This document shows, one piece after another, positions 57,646 to 64,000 of a DNA stretch of 64,000 nt (position 1 is the first letter of the stretch; each line of letters opens with the position of its first letter). Both the position numbers and the translations under genes were made by a program. This DNA is from a virus, in IMG/VR virus record IMGVR_UViG_3300032309_000931, positions 1 through 64,000 of that record, one strand, 5' to 3'. Below the pieces are notes generated by a model. The model was not told where the DNA came from. It saw only the letters and a list, made by a program, of their open reading frames with translations, and searched no databases.

Positions 57646-57655
57646 AACATCCAAA

Positions 57656-57880
57656 TCTGAATAATTTTTTATTTGTCGTATGCGACGAATTCTGAATATT
57701 TTTTTTTATTTTTGGATTTAGACATTTTCTGAATAATTTGATTATGTGTATGATACACGATCTGAGAGAATAAAACACTAAATCTTAGTGAGCACACTGC
57801 CTAAGCACTGCCTCTAATCGAGAATTGACTACTGGTGCCACCTAATAAATAGGAATAGTACTAGTGACTAGTGCCACCTA
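57656..57880. repeat. Short direct repeats at the strand-switch junction
   Basis: TCTGAATA x3 (57656, 57691, 57728), CACTGCCT x2, GTGCCACCTA x2 (57835, 57871). Confidence 0.6.
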
Positions 57881-57885
57881 GTAAT

Positions 57886-58047
57886 CTAGGCTAGTGGAAT
57901 CCAAGACCCACACTCTAGGCACGTGTCCGTAGCAACGTGGAACCAAGATTCTTCGTCACACACTACGCAGTCAGCGATAGCGTATCCTTCAACGTGCTGT
58001 CCACTAGCGAGCATTTCGTCACATTCTTCTGAGAGTAGCATTTCCAT
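57886..58047 (-). CDS. 53-aa zinc-ribbon microprotein
   Basis: MEMLLSEECDEML...CVVC...CLECG; AAAGGACA RBS; own promoter at 58084-58105. Confidence 0.65.
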   Translation of the reverse strand: MEMLLSEECDEMLASGQHVEGYAIADCVVCDEESWFHVATDTCLECGSWIPLA

Positions 58048-58288
58048 TTGTCTGTCCTTTGTTTGTGTTTCTTTGATATCTAAATACTATGTCATAGCAC
58101 GGACATATAACTACCAATACCGCACATATTTAGGTGAACAATAGGTTAACAAATTTTGCGCCCCCCACGCAACATTCTTGCGTGTTTTTACGACTTACGC
58201 AATAAATCCCCAAATAGCCTGTTTTTAGCCCTATTCTGGTAGTTTTATGTCGGTGGTCGATGTTACACTAAATATATAAACAAACAGA

Positions 58289-58370
58289 GAAACCAAAGAG
58301 AGTGAGCCTCTCAGAGCAAATAAGACCCAAAGGGTATGAGCCTCTCAGAGCAAATAAATCTCAAGGTTTC
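58289..58370 (+). ncRNA. Structured leader with two copies of the RUGAGC/CAAAUAAR motif
   Basis: GAAACC..GAGA GTGAGC CTCTCAGAG CAAATAAG ACCC-AAA-GGGT ATGAGC CTCTCAGAG CAAATAAA TCTC..GGTTTC. Confidence 0.55.
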
Positions 58371-58388
58371 AGATAAGGATAGAAAATA

Positions 58389-58499
58389 ATGAATGAATTT
58401 CACGGAAATTGCCAAAAGTGTGGCACTTGGAATCGAATTGCGTTTGTAGGTTCGATGTCCCTTAGCCAATTGCTTTGCAAGGCTTGCCGTAACAAGTAA
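58389..58499 (+). CDS. 36-aa zinc-ribbon microprotein
   Basis: MNEFHGNCQKCGTWNRIAFVGSMSLSQLLCKACRNK; AAGGA RBS. Confidence 0.7.
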   Translation: MNEFHGNCQKCGTWNRIAFVGSMSLSQLLCKACRNK

Positions 58500-58691
58500 G
58501 CCCCATAGCTTGTGCATAAGTTATCCACAGGCGGCGCACCACCATATCTAGTAACATACTGACATTTACGTACTACATATAGATTCCCCTGAATTATAAC
58601 AAAATGGTAACATAGCGTAACAATAGGGCATATCGATTAGTTATATGTCGGTGGTCTGTGTTAGGCTGTAGACATAAAGAAAGGAAATGAA

Positions 58692-58814
58692 ATGAACGAA
58701 TTTCACGGTAACTGCCAGAACTGTAAGGTCTGGACAAAGGTAGCCTTCAATGGCTCAATGGGTCTGAGTGAGTTGCTCTGCTCGCTCTGCCGTATGACAC
58801 AGGCTACCAAGTAG
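58692..58814 (+). CDS. 40-aa zinc-ribbon microprotein (paralog of 58389)
   Basis: MNEFHGNCQNCKVWTKVAFNGSMGLSELLCSLCRMTQATK. Confidence 0.7.
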   Translation: MNEFHGNCQNCKVWTKVAFNGSMGLSELLCSLCRMTQATK

Positions 58815-58866
58815 TTTCGTGTCGTACCTCTAGGCTATACTGATAACAACAAGTAAGGACAAACAA

Positions 58867-59046
58867 ATGGAAATCGAAAACGAAATCGACATCAACGAAG
58901 TTGAGGACATCAACATCAACACTCTCACGCCTAAGCAAATGGCACTACGCCTAAACGCTCTCGTTCGTTTGGCTCAGGGTGAAACATTCACTACCCACGA
59001 TTTTGAGGAAGCCCTAACGCTCACTCGCAAACTGGCTAAGCGATAG
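58867..59046 (+). CDS. 59-aa microprotein with acidic N-terminus
   Basis: MEIENEIDINEVEDININ...; AAGGACA RBS after promoter. Confidence 0.65.
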   Translation: MEIENEIDINEVEDININTLTPKQMALRLNALVRLAQGETFTTHDFEEALTLTRKLAKR

Positions 59047-59054
59047 GGGAACCA

Positions 59055-59144
59055 ATGCTAGTCTCAAACATCGCCACAGTAATTTGTGTGCTACTAATCG
59101 GATACCTAATAATCTACATCGCTCAGGAGATAAGCAATGACTAA
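59055..59144 (+). CDS. 29-aa TM microprotein
   Basis: MLVSNIATVICVLLIGYLIIYIAQEISND. Confidence 0.5.
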   Translation: MLVSNIATVICVLLIGYLIIYIAQEISND

Positions 59145-59226
59145 ATGTAAAGAGTGTAAGCGTAACCTAACTGTAATAATCGAAAACTATCCTGATTTGT
59201 GTTGGTCGTGTGTGATGGAACAGTAG
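59137..59226 (+). CDS. 29-aa CxxC/CxxC microprotein
   Basis: MTKCKECKRNLTVIIENYPDLCWSCVMEQ; AGGAG RBS. Confidence 0.55.
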   Translation: MTKCKECKRNLTVIIENYPDLCWSCVMEQ

Positions 59227-59395
59227 GCGGATCGACTTATCCACAGCCCCCGAAAAGTTATCCACAGGGGGGCGCAAACTTATCCACAGCCTGTTAGTAA
59301 CTTAGTTACGAATTGTTACGAACTTTCCCTAAAATTCCCTAGTTTTATGTCGGTGGTCAATGATAAAATGTAAACATACAAGCAAAGGACAAAAA

Positions 59396-59512
59396 ATGAA
59401 CTGGTATCAAGTACTCGTAGAGTATGATGAAATGATTGGCACAATCTATGTTGCGGCAGATGAATTGGAAGCATTCAAGGCAAAGTATAAAGTGCTAAGC
59501 GTAATCATCTAG
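59396..59512 (+). CDS. 38-aa microprotein
   Basis: MNWYQVLVEYDEMIG...; AAAGGACA RBS. Confidence 0.65.
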   Translation: MNWYQVLVEYDEMIGTIYVAADELEAFKAKYKVLSVII

Positions 59513-59568
59513 GGTTTCGTGTCGGTGGTCGCTGGTATACTAATAACATAAACAAGAAAAGGACAATA

Positions 59569-59709
59569 ATGACAAAGAGTCGATACACAACCGTACTGGT
59601 GGAAATGCCAGACAAGATTTTTTTCCAAGCAATCCACATCTATGATTGGGCTAAGGAAATCGAATACTTGAAATCTCAGGGTGCTACTTCTATCACTATA
59701 GCCAAGTAG
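59569..59709 (+). CDS. 46-aa microprotein
   Basis: MTKSRYTTVLVEMPDK...; AAAGGACA RBS. Confidence 0.65.
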   Translation: MTKSRYTTVLVEMPDKIFFQAIHIYDWAKEIEYLKSQGATSITIAK

Positions 59710-59718
59710 TTATCCACA

Positions 59719-59768
59719 GGGGTATCGAATGAGCCTGTAGTTATCCACAGCAAATAAGTCGATACCCC
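59719..59768 (+). ncRNA. RUGAGC/CAAAUAAR motif copy 3
   Basis: GGGGTATCGA ATGAGC CTGT-AGTTATCC-ACAG CAAATAAG TCGATACCCC. Confidence 0.55.
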
Positions 59769-59901
59769 CAAAGTTATCCACAGGCTGCGCCCCACGCAAG
59801 TTTATTGCGTCTTTATGAAGATAGTTGCGTTTTCCCTGAATTGGGGGGTTTTATGTCGGTGGTCGGCTGTATACTGATAACATAGACAGAAAAGGACAAC
59901 T

Positions 59902-60081
59902 ATGACAAATCAACTCCCAGAAAACAAGGCAACTGCCGAACAGTATGAAACTCTCAAATCGCTTATCACAAAGCGTTACCCTGACGCAGACCTGCTTCAC
60001 ATCTACGCTTCACTCTCAGGCGTACTTTCAGTAGGCGTATCTGAAGAGGCTATGGCACGACTTATCGAACTACACCAGTAG
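59902..60081 (+). CDS. 59-aa microprotein
   Basis: MTNQLPENKATAEQYE...; AAAGGACA RBS. Confidence 0.65.
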   Translation: MTNQLPENKATAEQYETLKSLITKRYPDADLLHIYASLSGVLSVGVSEEAMARLIELHQ

Positions 60082-60133
60082 TTTCGTGTCGGTGCTCACC
60101 AGTATAATTGTAATACAAGCAGAAAAGGAAAAA

Positions 60134-60367
60134 ATGGAACAACTAATCGGAACAAACGTAAAAACACACAACCACGCTTATCTTGGTGAGGTTCGCAACG
60201 TGTCTAGACTGTTTGTAAAGCCTATCTATCGTCACCTGAGAGGCATTGAGGCTAACGAGCCTTATGTTGCCTACGCTGTCGAAATCGAAGGCTCGGACAG
60301 TCCTAAAGGCTGGACAACGCTTATCGCTCGTGATGAAGCAGACATCCTGAAGCGTTACGCAGTCTAA
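60134..60367 (+). CDS. Small hypothetical protein
   Basis: Start MEQLIG after AAAGGA. Confidence 0.65.
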   Translation: MEQLIGTNVKTHNHAYLGEVRNVSRLFVKPIYRHLRGIEANEPYVAYAVEIEGSDSPKGWTTLIARDEADILKRYAV

Positions 60368-60374
60368 TCCGTAA

Positions 60375-60416
60375 GGGGAGAGAGTGAGCCTCGCAAGAGC
60401 AAATAAATCTCTCCCC
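60375..60416 (+). ncRNA. RUGAGC/CAAAUAAR motif copy 4
   Basis: GGGGAGAGA GTGAGC CTC-GCAA-GAG CAAATAAA TCTCTCCCC. Confidence 0.55.
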
Positions 60417-60579
60417 AAACAGGATACATTCCAAAATGGGAATGTGTGTCAATCTCAAAAAAATGCGCCCCCCCCCACCCCTAGCCTTAATTACGAATTA
60501 AGAAAACAAATCCCAGATTCCCGAATTAGATGTCGGTGGTCAATGTTATACTGTATACATAACGAAAGGACATAAGCAA

Positions 60580-60846
60580 ATGGCTTACTCAAACACTCAC
60601 GCAGATTTCTACCAGACGGCTATGGGGACTATGGTCACAGAGCCTCAGTCGGCTTGGGATACCTCTACTCACTGTGCAGACTGTGGCGTTCAGTACGCTT
60701 ACTGTGGCTGCCCCAACGAGGACATTGACGAGCCTGTTGATGGCTTTGCTGTCTGTGCTGTCTGCGACTATACCGTTCGTGGACTATTCTATCTCAATGG
60801 GGATTCAACTGGTCGCTGTGCTGGATGCCATAACTCTATTCGATAG
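60580..60846 (+). CDS. Cys-rich zinc-binding protein
   Basis: CADC..CGC..CAVC..CAGC; AAAGGACA RBS. Confidence 0.7.
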   Translation: MAYSNTHADFYQTAMGTMVTEPQSAWDTSTHCADCGVQYAYCGCPNEDIDEPVDGFAVCAVCDYTVRGLFYLNGDSTGRCAGCHNSIR

Positions 60847-60985
60847 GAGTTATCCACAGGCTGGGGCGCAGCTTTTGATCCTAGACATAATTACGTAAGC
60901 ATTAAAAATACCCTGGAAATTTCCCTAGTTTTATGTCGGTGCTCAGATGTATAATTATATTATCAACCAAACAAAGGACAAAGTA

Positions 60986-61537
60986 ATGACTACTCTCACC
61001 GCTAACGAAATTCACACCGCAACTGCTACAGATTTGTACCGTGACCTGATTGTTCGTGCTACTCTTGGACAGGTCGAACAGGCTAGTGTCTGGTATCACG
61101 AAGCACAAGAAGTTGCCCAAGAGGTTGCTCGTAATCTGGACACAACGCTAGAGGTTGGTGCTAGTGTCGTATCTGCGTTTTCTCCTCGTGAGCGTTGGGC
61201 AAGCAACATCGAAAAGGCTGTGGCGTTCTCACTTGGACACACGCCTAAAGGATTGGGCAACAACCTCAAAATGGCACAGTCCTCGCTGACTGCTGGATTC
61301 TATGCCCTCAAGGGTCTCAAGACTAATGCGTTTGCTCGTGCCATTGCTGGAGATACTGACGCTGTTGTGATTGACATTTGGATGATGAGAGCGGCAGGTA
61401 TGGAAACTGATAGCCCAACTCAAGGACAGTATTTCGCACTCTCACTTGCTTGCCGTAATGTCGCTAAAGAATTTGGGCTTACTCCTCGCACCGCACAGGC
61501 TCTGATTTGGATTCTCGTGAGAGGCTCAGCAATCTAA
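60986..61537 (+). CDS. HhH-GPD/DNA glycosylase-like helical protein
   Basis: WY..A..VA, SAFSP..RW..N, GLKTNAF, VVIDIW..RA, P..AQALIW. Confidence 0.55.
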   Translation: MTTLTANEIHTATATDLYRDLIVRATLGQVEQASVWYHEAQEVAQEVARNLDTTLEVGASVVSAFSPRERWASNIEKAVAFSLGHTPKGLGNNLKMAQSSLTAGFYALKGLKTNAFARAIAGDTDAVVIDIWMMRAAGMETDSPTQGQYFALSLACRNVAKEFGLTPRTAQALIWILVRGSAI

Positions 61538-61653
61538 GGGCTACCCCGAAAGGGGTTGCGCCCCACGCAGCTTTCTTGCGTAATTACGAACAATTTTTGT
61601 TTTTCCCTAAATTTGGGTAGTTATGTGTCGGTGCTCTGATGTATACTAATACT

Positions 61654-61818
61654 ATGAAGAAAAAGAACCCAACTCACAAAGGTATTGAGAACAAGCCCTA
61701 CATTGAGGCTATGCGTGAATTGCGTAGGTCTAACGCAGCCACTACCCACGACAACCGCCCTAACCGTTTGCGTACTCGCAAAGCAATCAAAACCCAAGCA
61801 ATCAAGGAGAACGAATAA
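61654..61818 (+). CDS. 54-aa basic microprotein, leaderless
   Basis: MKKKNP...MRELRRSNAATTH..R.RTR; ATG 6 nt after TATACT. Confidence 0.65.
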   Translation: MKKKNPTHKGIENKPYIEAMRELRRSNAATTHDNRPNRLRTRKAIKTQAIKENE

Positions 61819-61985
61819 TGGAATGTGAATTCTGCACTAATGAAAAACTGGCTACCGTTTCGGTTATGCACCTGCGTGACCGTATCGAACAAGCCGCCTG
61901 TGGCAAGTGTGCCAACGACCTATCTGATGAAAAGTGGGTAGTCACTCACGAATTCGACACATCTATCTGGGATTTTGCAGGGTAG
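61818..61985 (+). CDS. 55-aa zinc-finger microprotein
   Basis: MECEFC...ACGKC; TAATG coupling, AAGGAG RBS. Confidence 0.6.
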   Translation: MECEFCTNEKLATVSVMHLRDRIEQAACGKCANDLSDEKWVVTHEFDTSIWDFAG

Positions 61986-62040
61986 TTATGTGTCGGTGGT
62001 CTAGGTTATAATAGTAATACGAACAAAGAAAAGGACAGAA

Positions 62041-62214
62041 ATGAAAAAGTACAACTTCACTGGTTTCGCATTCGGTAGTAACGGAGAAATGGTTTTCCGT
62101 ATTGAGGTTCTGAACCACACCGAAAACGGAACAAATGTTTCCACCCAAATCGATTTGGAACTCACACCAGAGGAACGAACCGAACTCATCACCCAACTTA
62201 TCTCAATCAAGTAG
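62041..62214 (+). CDS. 57-aa microprotein
   Basis: MKKYNFTGFAFGSNG...; AAAGGACA RBS. Confidence 0.65.
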   Translation: MKKYNFTGFAFGSNGEMVFRIEVLNHTENGTNVSTQIDLELTPEERTELITQLISIK

Positions 62215-62265
62215 TTTGGTGTCGGTGCTTCACGCTATAATAGAACTACGAACAAAGGACAATAA

Positions 62266-62445
62266 ATGAAAGACACAATCAACCGTTCAGGTGAGGTAAT
62301 CGAAAATCTCACAATCGCACAGGGTGACCGCCGTTATGCTTACGCATTTGCGTTTGGATTTGCGTGGTCTTTGCTCTCGGAAAAGAACCGTAAAGAGTTG
62401 CTGAAAATCTCAGAACGAAAAGCACAAGAAAAGGACAACGACTAA
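62266..62445 (+). CDS. 59-aa microprotein
   Basis: MKDTINRSGEVIENL...YAFAFGFAWSLL; AAAGGACA RBS. Confidence 0.6.
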   Translation: MKDTINRSGEVIENLTIAQGDRRYAYAFAFGFAWSLLSEKNRKELLKISERKAQEKDND

Positions 62446-62642
62446 TGACAAAGTATCCAGAAATCGAAGTACAACTTACAGGACAAGACGGCAACGCATT
62501 CGCAATTATGGGTGCGGTATCTCGTGAACTCCGCAAGGCTGGGGTATCCAAAGAGGAAATCAACGAATACACTACGCAATCTATGTCTGGCGACTATGAC
62601 AACCTTTTGCGTACTGCTATGGCTTGGGTGAGTGTATCCTAA
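62445..62642 (+). CDS. Conserved phage hypothetical protein
   Basis: LTGQDGNAFAIMG.V...LR.AG...SGDYDNLL. Confidence 0.75.
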   Translation: MTKYPEIEVQLTGQDGNAFAIMGAVSRELRKAGVSKEEINEYTTQSMSGDYDNLLRTAMAWVSVS

Positions 62643-62821
62643 TGATGACACGCAAAGACTATGTAGCCGTTTCAGAATTGCTGAACACCTACGCTCTCAA
62701 AATAGATGAGCAAACATTCGACCTACTCATTCACGACTTTGCTGGACTGATGGCAAAGGACAATGAGCGTTTCATCGCTGACCGTTTCATCTCCGCTTGC
62801 TGGAATGGCGAGAATGCTTGA
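62642..62821 (+). CDS. Conserved phage hypothetical protein
   Basis: MTRKDY...DNERF..DRF..AC. Confidence 0.7.
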   Translation: MMTRKDYVAVSELLNTYALKIDEQTFDLLIHDFAGLMAKDNERFIADRFISACWNGENA

Positions 62822-62879
62822 GATTATTGTTATCACGCTGGGGGTATTGGCAGTACTCCTGGCGTGGTTCAATGACTAA
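62814..62879 (+). CDS. 21-aa TM peptide
   Basis: MLEIIVITLGVLAVLLAWFND; overlaps upstream stop. Confidence 0.35.
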   Translation: MLEIIVITLGVLAVLLAWFND

Positions 62880-62998
62880 AATTTTGCGCCCCCCTGCCCT
62901 CACAAACCTATTACTAACCTTACGATCTTTTTCCCGAAATTCACAGAGTTTGATGTCGGTGGTACTTGGTATAATAGAAACATAACGAAAGGACACTA

Positions 62999-63304
62999 AT
63001 GAACGACGGAACATACCTCAACCTTGACGGAAAGTTTATTCTCTCTCACGCCAAGTCTGGCTATTGGGTAGCCGTTCACAAGTACGACAGCCTTGACGAC
63101 ACTATTTCAGGGGATTACGTAGGCGTGTGGACAAATCCCGAAACTGGCGTTATGTACCTTGACCGTAGCGTTTGGGTGTCTGACTTGGACAACGCTATCG
63201 CTCTGGGTAAGTCACAAGGACAATTGGCTATCTGGGACTGTGCCAATGAAACAGAAATCTGGCTCAACGAATACTTTGCCGATGTATTCAAAGACGAAGT
63301 TTGA
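62999..63304 (+). CDS. Hypothetical protein
   Basis: YVGVW...YLDRS...A..LG..GQLAIWD; AAAGGACA RBS. Confidence 0.75.
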   Translation: MNDGTYLNLDGKFILSHAKSGYWVAVHKYDSLDDTISGDYVGVWTNPETGVMYLDRSVWVSDLDNAIALGKSQGQLAIWDCANETEIWLNEYFADVFKDEV

Positions 63305-63332
63305 TGTCGGTACTCCCCTGTATAATTAGACT

Positions 63333-63443
63333 ATGAACGAACAATTTATCGAATGCCCCCAATGTGGCGACACAGTAATCGAATCCGATATGCGTGAGGT
63401 AGGCGTATGTTGGGAATGTGACTATCTACCAGAGGAGAAATAA
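63333..63443 (+). CDS. 36-aa zinc-ribbon microprotein, leaderless
   Basis: MNEQFIECPQCG...VCWECD; ATG 6 nt after TATAAT. Confidence 0.6.
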   Translation: MNEQFIECPQCGDTVIESDMREVGVCWECDYLPEEK

Positions 63444-63722
63444 ATGGGAAGAATGTTTGTAGAGAGTATCAAGGAACTTGGCGATATCGAATTAGAGGAT
63501 ATGGTGAGTATGCACTTCAGTAGCAATTGCTACCCCCCAATTCCACAGTTTATGGTGCAGTCAGCGGTAGCCGCTATCAACGCTTGCAACTATGGTGACT
63601 ACAATGAGGTAATCCAATTGCCACACGGAGTCACTTACAGGGGTAGTGAGTTTGTTGATGCAGCCACCTATGTCGAAGCACACCGCCTTGAGGGATTCGT
63701 AGAATGGGAGTATGAGGACTAA
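63444..63722 (+). CDS. Hypothetical protein
   Basis: HFSSNCYPPIP...LPHGVTYRG...HRLEGF; AGGAG RBS. Confidence 0.75.
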   Translation: MGRMFVESIKELGDIELEDMVSMHFSSNCYPPIPQFMVQSAVAAINACNYGDYNEVIQLPHGVTYRGSEFVDAATYVEAHRLEGFVEWEYED

Positions 63723-63811
63723 TGGACTGGGAAAACGTAATTGACTGGAAAGTTGTTGACAGGTTGACAGACGAACAGGTATCCGCTATACTGGATATGT
63801 TCGACAAGTAA
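63722..63811 (+). CDS. 29-aa microprotein
   Basis: MDWENVIDWKVVDRLTDEQVSAILDMFDK; TAATG coupling. Confidence 0.5.
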   Translation: MDWENVIDWKVVDRLTDEQVSAILDMFDK

Positions 63812-63818
63812 GGATAAA

Positions 63819-63992
63819 ATGACTGACTATATACTCAAATATCAGGTATGGAATGGACACGAGGACGGTAAGTTGGCAACGTTCCGTCACTTGGAACAGG
63901 CACAACTGTTTGTCGATAGCGTGAGAGCATTCTATCCCAAGGTATTTGTTTATGATGTTTTGACTGGACAACGATTGGTGAGTGCAGACTAG
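63819..63992 (+). CDS. 57-aa microprotein
   Basis: MTDYILKYQVWNG...; AAGGA RBS. Confidence 0.55.
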   Translation: MTDYILKYQVWNGHEDGKLATFRHLEQAQLFVDSVRAFYPKVFVYDVLTGQRLVSAD

Positions 63993-64000
63993 GAGCTGCG

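Follow-up and report, generated by a model that had tools for sequence, protein, structure and literature searches.

What reads the array of very small genes that starts at 58.1 kb in the virus record IMGVR_UViG_3300032309_000931 of IMG/VR, and what do the recurring motifs in the spacers between these genes contribute? The stretch of DNA analyzed here (the window) consists of the first 64 kb of that 93,875-bp record, which represents a genome that is about 87% complete. An initial annotation had described the array as a series of autonomous cassettes, the spacers of which would recruit the host regulator PafBC and titrate both DnaA and an OmpR-family regulator, and the shared ends of which could allow cassettes to be gained or lost by recombination. 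The evidence collected below makes it, in our judgment, reasonably probable that the region is an early-gene array of autonomous, recombining cassettes under PafBC-type promoters.

PafBC-type promoters in front of the small genes

The pattern TGTCGG-N10-TAnnnT occurs 13 times in the window, always on the plus strand and between 58248 and 63326, where shuffled sequences give an expectation of 0.29. Seventeen strict copies are present in the genome, up to position 68142, with an invariant spacing and all co-oriented with the open reading frames (ORFs). Two variant promoters keep the same spacing, at 58820 (TGTCGT) and at genome position 65942 (TGTCAG). On the basis of the sequence, the shuffles and the published consensus, the window thus holds 14 plus-strand promoters of the form TGTCGG(TG)-N10(N8)-TAnnnT (58248..63326), the -26 elements of which start at 58248, 58646, 58820 (the TGTCGT variant), 59348, 59520, 59854, 60087, 60531, 60934, 61626, 61991, 62220, 62954 and 63305. 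Most of the 14 are preceded by (T)AGTTWnn. No -35 element was found at these promoters, and a sigma-70 scan returned 7 -35/-10 sites against 13.2 in shuffles. A divergent promoter of the same type, TGTCCG-N10-TAGTAT, was read from the sequence on the minus strand (58084..58105), where it serves a 53-amino-acid (aa) ORF at 57886-58047 and forms the left edge of the array. Separately, one canonical TTGACA-N17-TATAAT promoter was observed inside the array (genome position ~65634), and therefore not every unit relies on a -26 element.

The in vivo motif of PafBC has been given as tGTCgg(N10)tA(N3)T, with the 5' part at -23 to -28, without a -35 element and with a GTC triplet that is strictly conserved across the actinobacteria; the activator sits between the -26 element and domain 4 of SigA (PMC8635444). 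An older form of the motif reads tTGTCRgtg-8nt-TAnnnT (PMC5656591). PafBC is activated by single-stranded DNA (ssDNA), to some extent even by pieces of 6 nucleotides (nt), and it has been argued that the source of this ssDNA must be local (PMC11804915). The phage promoters agree exactly with the description of the motif: tGTCgg lies 10 nt before TAnnnT, the -35 element is missing and the GTC core is invariant, precisely as in the PafBC-dependent promoters (RecA-NDp, recA P1-type) of Mycobacterium and other Actinobacteria that are read by sigma adaptation. We therefore infer that they are PafBC-dependent, a link that is strong on sequence grounds. The phage promoters differ from those of the bacteria in that 19 copies within 10 kb drive tiny orphan genes instead of repair genes, and in that their conserved flanks are longer. 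No account of phage promoters of this class turned up in the literature that was searched.

The association extends to the organisms in which the phage probably multiplies. Its genome encodes WhiB, its portal protein is closest (46% aa) to the portals of Streptomyces and Rhodococcus phages, and the small subunit of its ribonucleotide reductase (RNR) matches chromosomal genes of Aquiluna, Rhodoluna and other Microbacteriaceae at 79-87% identity, some of these matches lying inside contigs of 1.2-1.4 Mb. Because of these gene similarities, the host is probably a freshwater actinobacterium of the Luna cluster (Aquiluna/Rhodoluna). All four Aquiluna/Microbacteriaceae genomes examined contain two adjacent WYL ORFs (~320-350 aa); in the one pair that was examined, of genome G007, both members combine WYL with WCX domains, and HTH_PafC is present in one of them. 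Judged by these features, the likely host clade appears to encode a pafB-pafC-like pair. Upstream of recA, three of the four genomes show GTC-N12-TAnnnT, once as TGTCGGTAGCCAAAAGTAATGT, and in the fourth TGTCGG is accompanied by a poor -10 element. The proposal that the array recruits PafBC is thus borne out as far as the match of sequence and spacing and the gene pair of the host clade are concerned, the dependence on PafBC itself being predicted from sequence. As a side observation, a metagenome-assembled genome of Aquiluna (G008) has a perfect GTTATCCACAG, an 11-mer that also occurs in the phage spacers, directly 5' of the TGTCGG element of recA; this 11-mer is missing upstream of recA in the other genomes of the host clade.

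Each unit of the array is an autonomous cassette, as had been proposed: it has its own promoter, then a Shine-Dalgarno (SD) sequence or a leaderless ATG, and then one to four tiny genes. The plus strand of the window holds 22 small ORFs (58389..63992; 29-183 aa), which are either leaderless or preceded by an AAAGGA-type SD sequence. The genes at 61654 and 63333 begin 6 nt past the -10 hexamer and are therefore leaderless; leaderless genes are common in actinobacteria. The products include several zinc-ribbon-like peptides and a DUF7178 protein (60986-61537), and most of the small ORFs had no known family in searches of Pfam and PHROGs (sub-threshold Pfam matches were ignored).

In the mechanism that we propose, host RNA polymerase with SigA would read the promoters only when ssDNA-activated PafBC bridges the -26 element to domain 4 of the sigma factor ('sigma adaptation'), and the first phage genes would thereby be coupled to the DNA alarm of the host. 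Hairpins, C-rich tracts and possibly bound DnaA would insulate the units from each other, and recombination among the modules would exchange cassettes and homogenise the modules within a genome. A search of the phage genome found neither a WYL protein nor a DnaA domain (domain IV included), and therefore nothing encoded by the phage itself that would read the -26 element or the DnaA-type boxes described below.

Spacer modules, boundary motifs and cassette exchange

The long spacers share the order stop codon, TTATCCACA boxes or hairpins, a GC-rich boundary motif (the GC motif), TTACGA, TCCC..RAW, promoter, and SD or leaderless ATG. The elements and the recurring order named in the initial annotation were all found in place, the strict order of GC motif, TTACG, TCCC..RAW and promoter being present in 9 of the 12 long spacers; seven genomes together show it in 46 of 75. 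In the window the GC motif reads TGCGCC(CC) on the plus strand at 58157, 59786, 60464, 61557, 62885 and 63997 (the last cut by the window end) and is inverted at 58533, 59271 and 60865. It lies 66-68 nt 5' of TGTCGG in 7 of the 12 long spacers and 76-112 nt in the other five, and a distance of 65-70 nt to the promoter is kept across seven genomes. A long boundary forms one module of fixed length, in which ~66 nt with TTACGA and TCCC..RAW separate the GC motif from the promoter. TTACG(A) occurs on the plus strand of the long spacers at 58188, 58566, 59306/59316, 60491, 60891, 61584 and 62920, generally 32-60 nt 5' of TGTCGG (80 nt in one spacer), and TCCC..RAWT at 59326, 59833, 60511, 61604 and 62932, likewise on the plus strand and ~20-22 nt 5' of TGTCGG. 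The site for an OmpR-family regulator finds no direct support: TTACGA, on which the assignment is based, is conserved across lineages and is arranged as a tandem direct repeat in only about 3 of the 12 spacers, and no factor can be named. Tandem copies are found at 59306/59316, at genome position 65503 (where the second copy is degenerate) and in the related locus L118; most spacers have a single TTACGA. The short spacers described as TAG-TTTCG-TGTCG were found at 58812 and 60079 and, in variant form, at 59510 and 62212. They are pared down to TAG-TTnnn-TGTCGG, such that the stop codon forms part of the 5' edge of the promoter.

Several spacers can fold. Searches for repeats and folds gave plus-strand hairpins of the type ACGCAR-N5-YTGCGT at 58167, 59794 and 61565. 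The first of these is part of CACGCAA-N5-TTGCGTG followed by TTTTT (58166..58184), which is terminator-like; its sisters span 59794-59810 and 61565-61581. A second structured motif (a stem, RUGAGCC, an inner hairpin, CAAAUAAR and the closing stem) is present in two plus-strand copies in the first 5' untranslated region (58293..58362), and further copies lie at 59719-59768 and 60375-60416; the motif corresponds to the repeat families D14, D16 and D18. Its fold z-scores range from -2.0 to -3.8, the stems vary between copies, one copy encloses a DnaA box, and the motif is found in relatives too; it matched no Rfam family.

Thirteen IMG/VR loci were retrieved with the DUF7178 protein. The six close relatives among them (76-93% aa) have 8-14 such promoters per locus and the same spacer order. 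Distant relatives carry a TGTCAG-N10-TAnnnT variant, for instance a 99.6-kb genome with 10 clustered copies against none in the control, and retain TTACGAAG and TCCCC.GAAATT at the same places. In contrast, the first 16 kb of Streptomyces phage Jay2Jay, which has the nearest portal, contain no PafBC-type promoters and no DnaA boxes, and the feature is therefore not common to that group. In the same 16 kb, GATC is completely absent and a superficially similar small-gene array is present. No match was obtained by blastn of the region against GenBank phages, and a scan of IMG/VR with the exact 14-mer TTATGTCGGTGGTC gave single chance matches only.

Within the close group the cassettes differ in content and order. 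The DUF7178 cassette precedes the leaderless-gene cassette in the present genome, L120 and L122, whereas it follows the block at 62212-62883 in L118, L119, L121 and L123; in addition, many cassettes are genome-specific. Junction alignments showed that the sequence 3' of the GC motif moves with the downstream gene and the 5' sequence with the upstream gene. The ends of blastn high-scoring segment pairs (HSPs) cluster in three places: the GC motif, a point 8 nt 5' of TGTCG (where TAGTT borders the promoter) and the start codon. Of these ends, 13% fall within 15 nt of a GCGC, against 3.7% for random positions (maximum 10% in 2000 trials). The suggestion that cassettes are gained and lost by recombination at shared ends is hence supported: between the relatives, cassettes have been gained, lost or transposed, the breakpoints fall at repeated elements, and comparison of the aligned loci shows the repeated modules to be the apparent sites of cassette exchange, loss, gain and transposition. 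Homologous recombination is the likely route of exchange, and the phage encodes RecA; no integrase or site-specific recombinase was found in the phage. The -26 element and the GC motif also change in concert within genomes. For instance, four orthologous promoters of L120 read TGTCGTAG, and a fifth reads TGTCATAG. This concerted change indicates that homogenisation by recombination among the modules is at work, which may be enough to explain the pattern of the GC motif.

A precedent for shuffling at promoter repeats is provided by the promoter-early stem-loop cassettes (PeSLs) in the hyperplastic regions of T4-type phages (PMC4122927). Both systems have composite terminator/promoter repeats that flank small variable ORFs, and in both, the repeats are where related phages differ by inserted, deleted or swapped segments. 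The present phage differs in its actinobacterial host and in its promoter class, which is inferred to be activator-dependent and has no -35 element, and its module is longer (~90 nt), adding the genome-specific GC motif, the TTACGA and TCCC elements and the DnaA boxes. Integron gene cassettes with their attC sites are likewise short genes that are exchanged at a junction element recurring at their borders, but the phage cassettes each have their own promoter and their exchange looks homology-driven.

The composition of the GC motif is peculiar. With 8 copies in the window, all within 58157-62890, against 11 expected, TGCGCC is not above chance in number. Nevertheless, it contains every GCGC of the window, and the 93.9-kb genome has just 13 GCGC sites where ~159 are expected, 13 of 13 inside TGCGCC in spacers between 58.1 and 71.3 kb. 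Within any one genome the motif is uniform; at the orthologous sites of other genomes it can read differently, in an unchanged orientation: TGCGCC(CC) is found in the present genome, G002 and L122, CGCGCC(CC) in L118, CCCGAGCC in G001, L119 and L123, GGGGCGCCCC in L126 and (G)GCC(C)GG(C) in G010. In each case the motif holds a palindrome that is otherwise purged from that genome. All 14 copies of CCCGAG in G001 are at boundaries, and the sequence is absent from four other genomes; the 7 copies of CCGG in G010, where 126 are expected, are likewise all at boundaries. More generally, GGCC and CCGG are absent and CGCG is nearly absent from three close genomes examined. CATG occurs 1, 93 and 0 times (~330 expected) in the present genome, G001 and G002, all three of which lack CGATCG, CTCGAG, GCTAGC and GTGCAC. 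Such extreme avoidance of palindromes points to hosts with many restriction systems. By chance, 54% of GC-rich 8-mers would hold one such palindrome, and the presence of one in the GC motif may therefore be coincidence. The differential gene content of the present genome, G001 and G002 (glycosyltransferases, a TIM-barrel enzyme, tail-fibre variants and one HNH gene absent from G002) revealed no cognate protein of the motif. A Chi-like hotspot was also considered and rejected, since the host genomes show no strong excess or strand skew: per genome of 1.2-1.4 Mb, TGCGCCCC occurs 13-30 times (2-3 times the control) and CCCGAGCC 29-60 times (equal to the control), without skew.

DnaA-type boxes and the surroundings of the array

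The 9-mer TTATCCACA occurs eight times in the window, where 0.81 would be expected, always on the plus strand and between 58521 and 60858. The boxes (TTATCCACA(G)) form sets at 58521, 59237/59258/59280, 59710/59741/59774 and 60850, each starting 1-22 nt past a stop codon, and they are kept in the relatives as singles and triplets. The same 9-mer is clustered near position 1 of the complete Aquiluna chromosome record, in which 8 of 15 copies lie in two clusters, at 1.5-1.6 kb and ~14.6 kb before the record end; the former is probably the dnaA-dnaN oriC, judging by the general layout of actinobacterial origins. The phage has 11 perfect boxes, compared with 11-15 in a whole host chromosome, and some titration would therefore be unavoidable if DnaA binds them. 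Titration, the role assigned to the boxes in the initial annotation, is one of at least four readings, the others being an injection stop, a transcription roadblock and origin support, and none of them is favoured.

T5-like phages also have early small genes and 8 DnaA boxes in the untranslated DNA of their first-step-transfer region (bioRxiv 10.1101/866236). However, the boxes of T5 lie in one large untranslated block within the terminal repeat, whereas those of the present phage are distributed over four spacers. The datA locus of E. coli, which titrates DnaA, resembles the phage region in being a cluster of consensus DnaA boxes away from an origin; the phage boxes differ in that they are phage-borne, co-oriented and placed directly after stop codons. 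Outside the window, a second cluster of boxes flanks an AT-rich, 0.7-kb non-coding stretch (genome positions 71150-71950) with TTATCCACA in opposite orientations. This stretch contains in addition five copies of TTACGA (71.2-71.8 kb) and one GC motif, and it looks like an origin (oriC-like).

The phage seems to be an uncultured siphophage, with 58.1-68.2 kb as its early-gene region. The minus strand up to ~57 kb encodes tape measure, capsid, portal and tail-fibre proteins together with DnaB, DnaG, DnaE, RecA and terminase. From 58.1 kb onwards the plus strand carries small genes: the block with repeated promoters runs to ~68.2 kb, i.e. ~4.2 kb past the window end, and comprises 19 small plus-strand transcription units in ~10 kb, and a block without repeated promoters extends from there to ~71.2 kb. 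Within 57-64 kb Rfam gave nothing, its only matches being tRNAs beyond the window: one tRNA gene lies within a long spacer of the array (genome positions 66582-66653) and two are on the minus strand (76198-76359). Just left of the array, between convergent gene ends, is an AT-rich non-coding stretch (57650-57900) with two copies of a 37-nt direct repeat (57665-57738) and the repeated sequence AGTGCCACCTA, a candidate for the genome terminus or a packaging site. Three long assemblies are circularly permuted, and both ends of the present contig lie within the gene for the RNR large subunit; termini or terminal repeats are therefore not readable from these assemblies.

Competing explanations and implications

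Several observations weigh against an early-gene array under PafBC control. PafBC is inactive without ssDNA (PMC11804915) and would need a source of it at the start of an infection; the earlier notion that it would be recruited before any phage protein is made assumes a PafBC that is already active. Moreover, the phage motif (AGTTWnnTGTCGGTGGTC) is longer and more uniform than the host consensus, which might mean that the copies descend from one ancestor or that something else reads them. In the host genomes sampled, the strict TGTCGG-N10-TAnnnT pattern has about the frequency of the control, so that a host regulon is not definable here, and the host is uncultured and identified through gene similarity. 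In addition, the HSP ends come from six related genomes and are not independent events, and the terminator scan was passed by one hairpin only. The promoters might accordingly be read without host PafBC, either by a phage-encoded or virion-delivered factor or by SigA alone at a strong -10 element, with the likeness to PafBC promoters being convergence or other mimicry. The conserved flanks (AGTTWnn before, GTC after) do exceed the PafBC consensus, an injected double-stranded genome may not give the ssDNA signal, and in a genome of this completeness a factor gene could be missed. We nevertheless regard such a reader as unlikely, considering that spacing and GTC core are exact in all copies, that the phage search found no WYL protein, that the likely hosts combine a pafB-pafC-like pair with the same promoter form at recA, and that the TGTCAG and TGTCGG variants of the relatives fit the R published at that position (PMC5656591).

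Even with PafBC-type promoters as the preferred reading, the other spacer motifs (GC motif, TTACGA, TCCC..RAW) might bind nothing specific and be inherited parts of one duplicated module that recombination keeps alike. The fixed distance of the GC motif in seven genomes, its change in concert with the -26 element and the high chance frequency of purged palindromes in GC-rich 8-mers all fit this idea. It is possible but rather doubtful, because TTACGA(A) and TCCCC.GAAATT persist in place in distant lineages with an altered promoter variant and GC motif, TTACGA recurs five times in the oriC-like region, and the retained palindrome is confined to boundaries in three lineages. The last observation would suit a GC motif at which a restriction enzyme of the host or a nickase of the phage cleaves or nicks the DNA, and which is deliberately kept between autonomous cassettes: GCGC (present genome), CCCGAG (G001) and CCGG (G010) survive only at boundaries, the motif varies between genomes yet holds its orientation at orthologous sites, and short local ssDNA switches PafBC on (PMC11804915). 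We consider this quite improbable. The search for a cognate nuclease gene was unsuccessful, the single HNH gene being missing from G002, which has the same motif; the palindromes may be there by coincidence, and the motifs themselves extend beyond the palindromes and are not symmetric; and cutting would destroy the genome unless the array were duplicated. The further step, by which a cut or nick at the GC motif would yield local ssDNA and so turn on PafBC at the adjacent promoters, the autonomous cassettes still being expressed from the fragments, is a shade less probable again. As to the DnaA-type boxes, a role other than that of a sponge deserves serious thought, although we would put it somewhat below an even chance: they could serve as a T5-like injection stop or membrane anchor, as orientation-dependent transcription roadblocks, or as accessory sites for the DnaA-dependent step that loads the DnaB of the phage onto the oriC-like region. 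The T5-like precedent, the co-orientation of 8 of 8 boxes shortly after stop codons, the combination of DnaB, DnaG and DnaE with no DnaA domain found in the phage, and the second box cluster around an AT-rich region all agree with such roles; none of this discriminates them from titration, and the 11 phage boxes match the count of the whole host.

If the promoters are PafBC-dependent, a group of abundant lake phages starts infection via the ssDNA alarm of the host and not via housekeeping promoters, and the promoter modules could possibly serve as compact damage-inducible parts for actinobacterial genetics. If the GC motif were indeed cut, the phage would turn the restriction and DNA-alarm systems of its host into its own ignition switch; a genome-specific motif built around a purged palindrome is in any case a testable puzzle that joins restriction avoidance, recombination and regulation. 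Finally, the array shows the shuffling of small orphan genes in actinophages and thus extends the PeSL idea beyond the T4-type phages.

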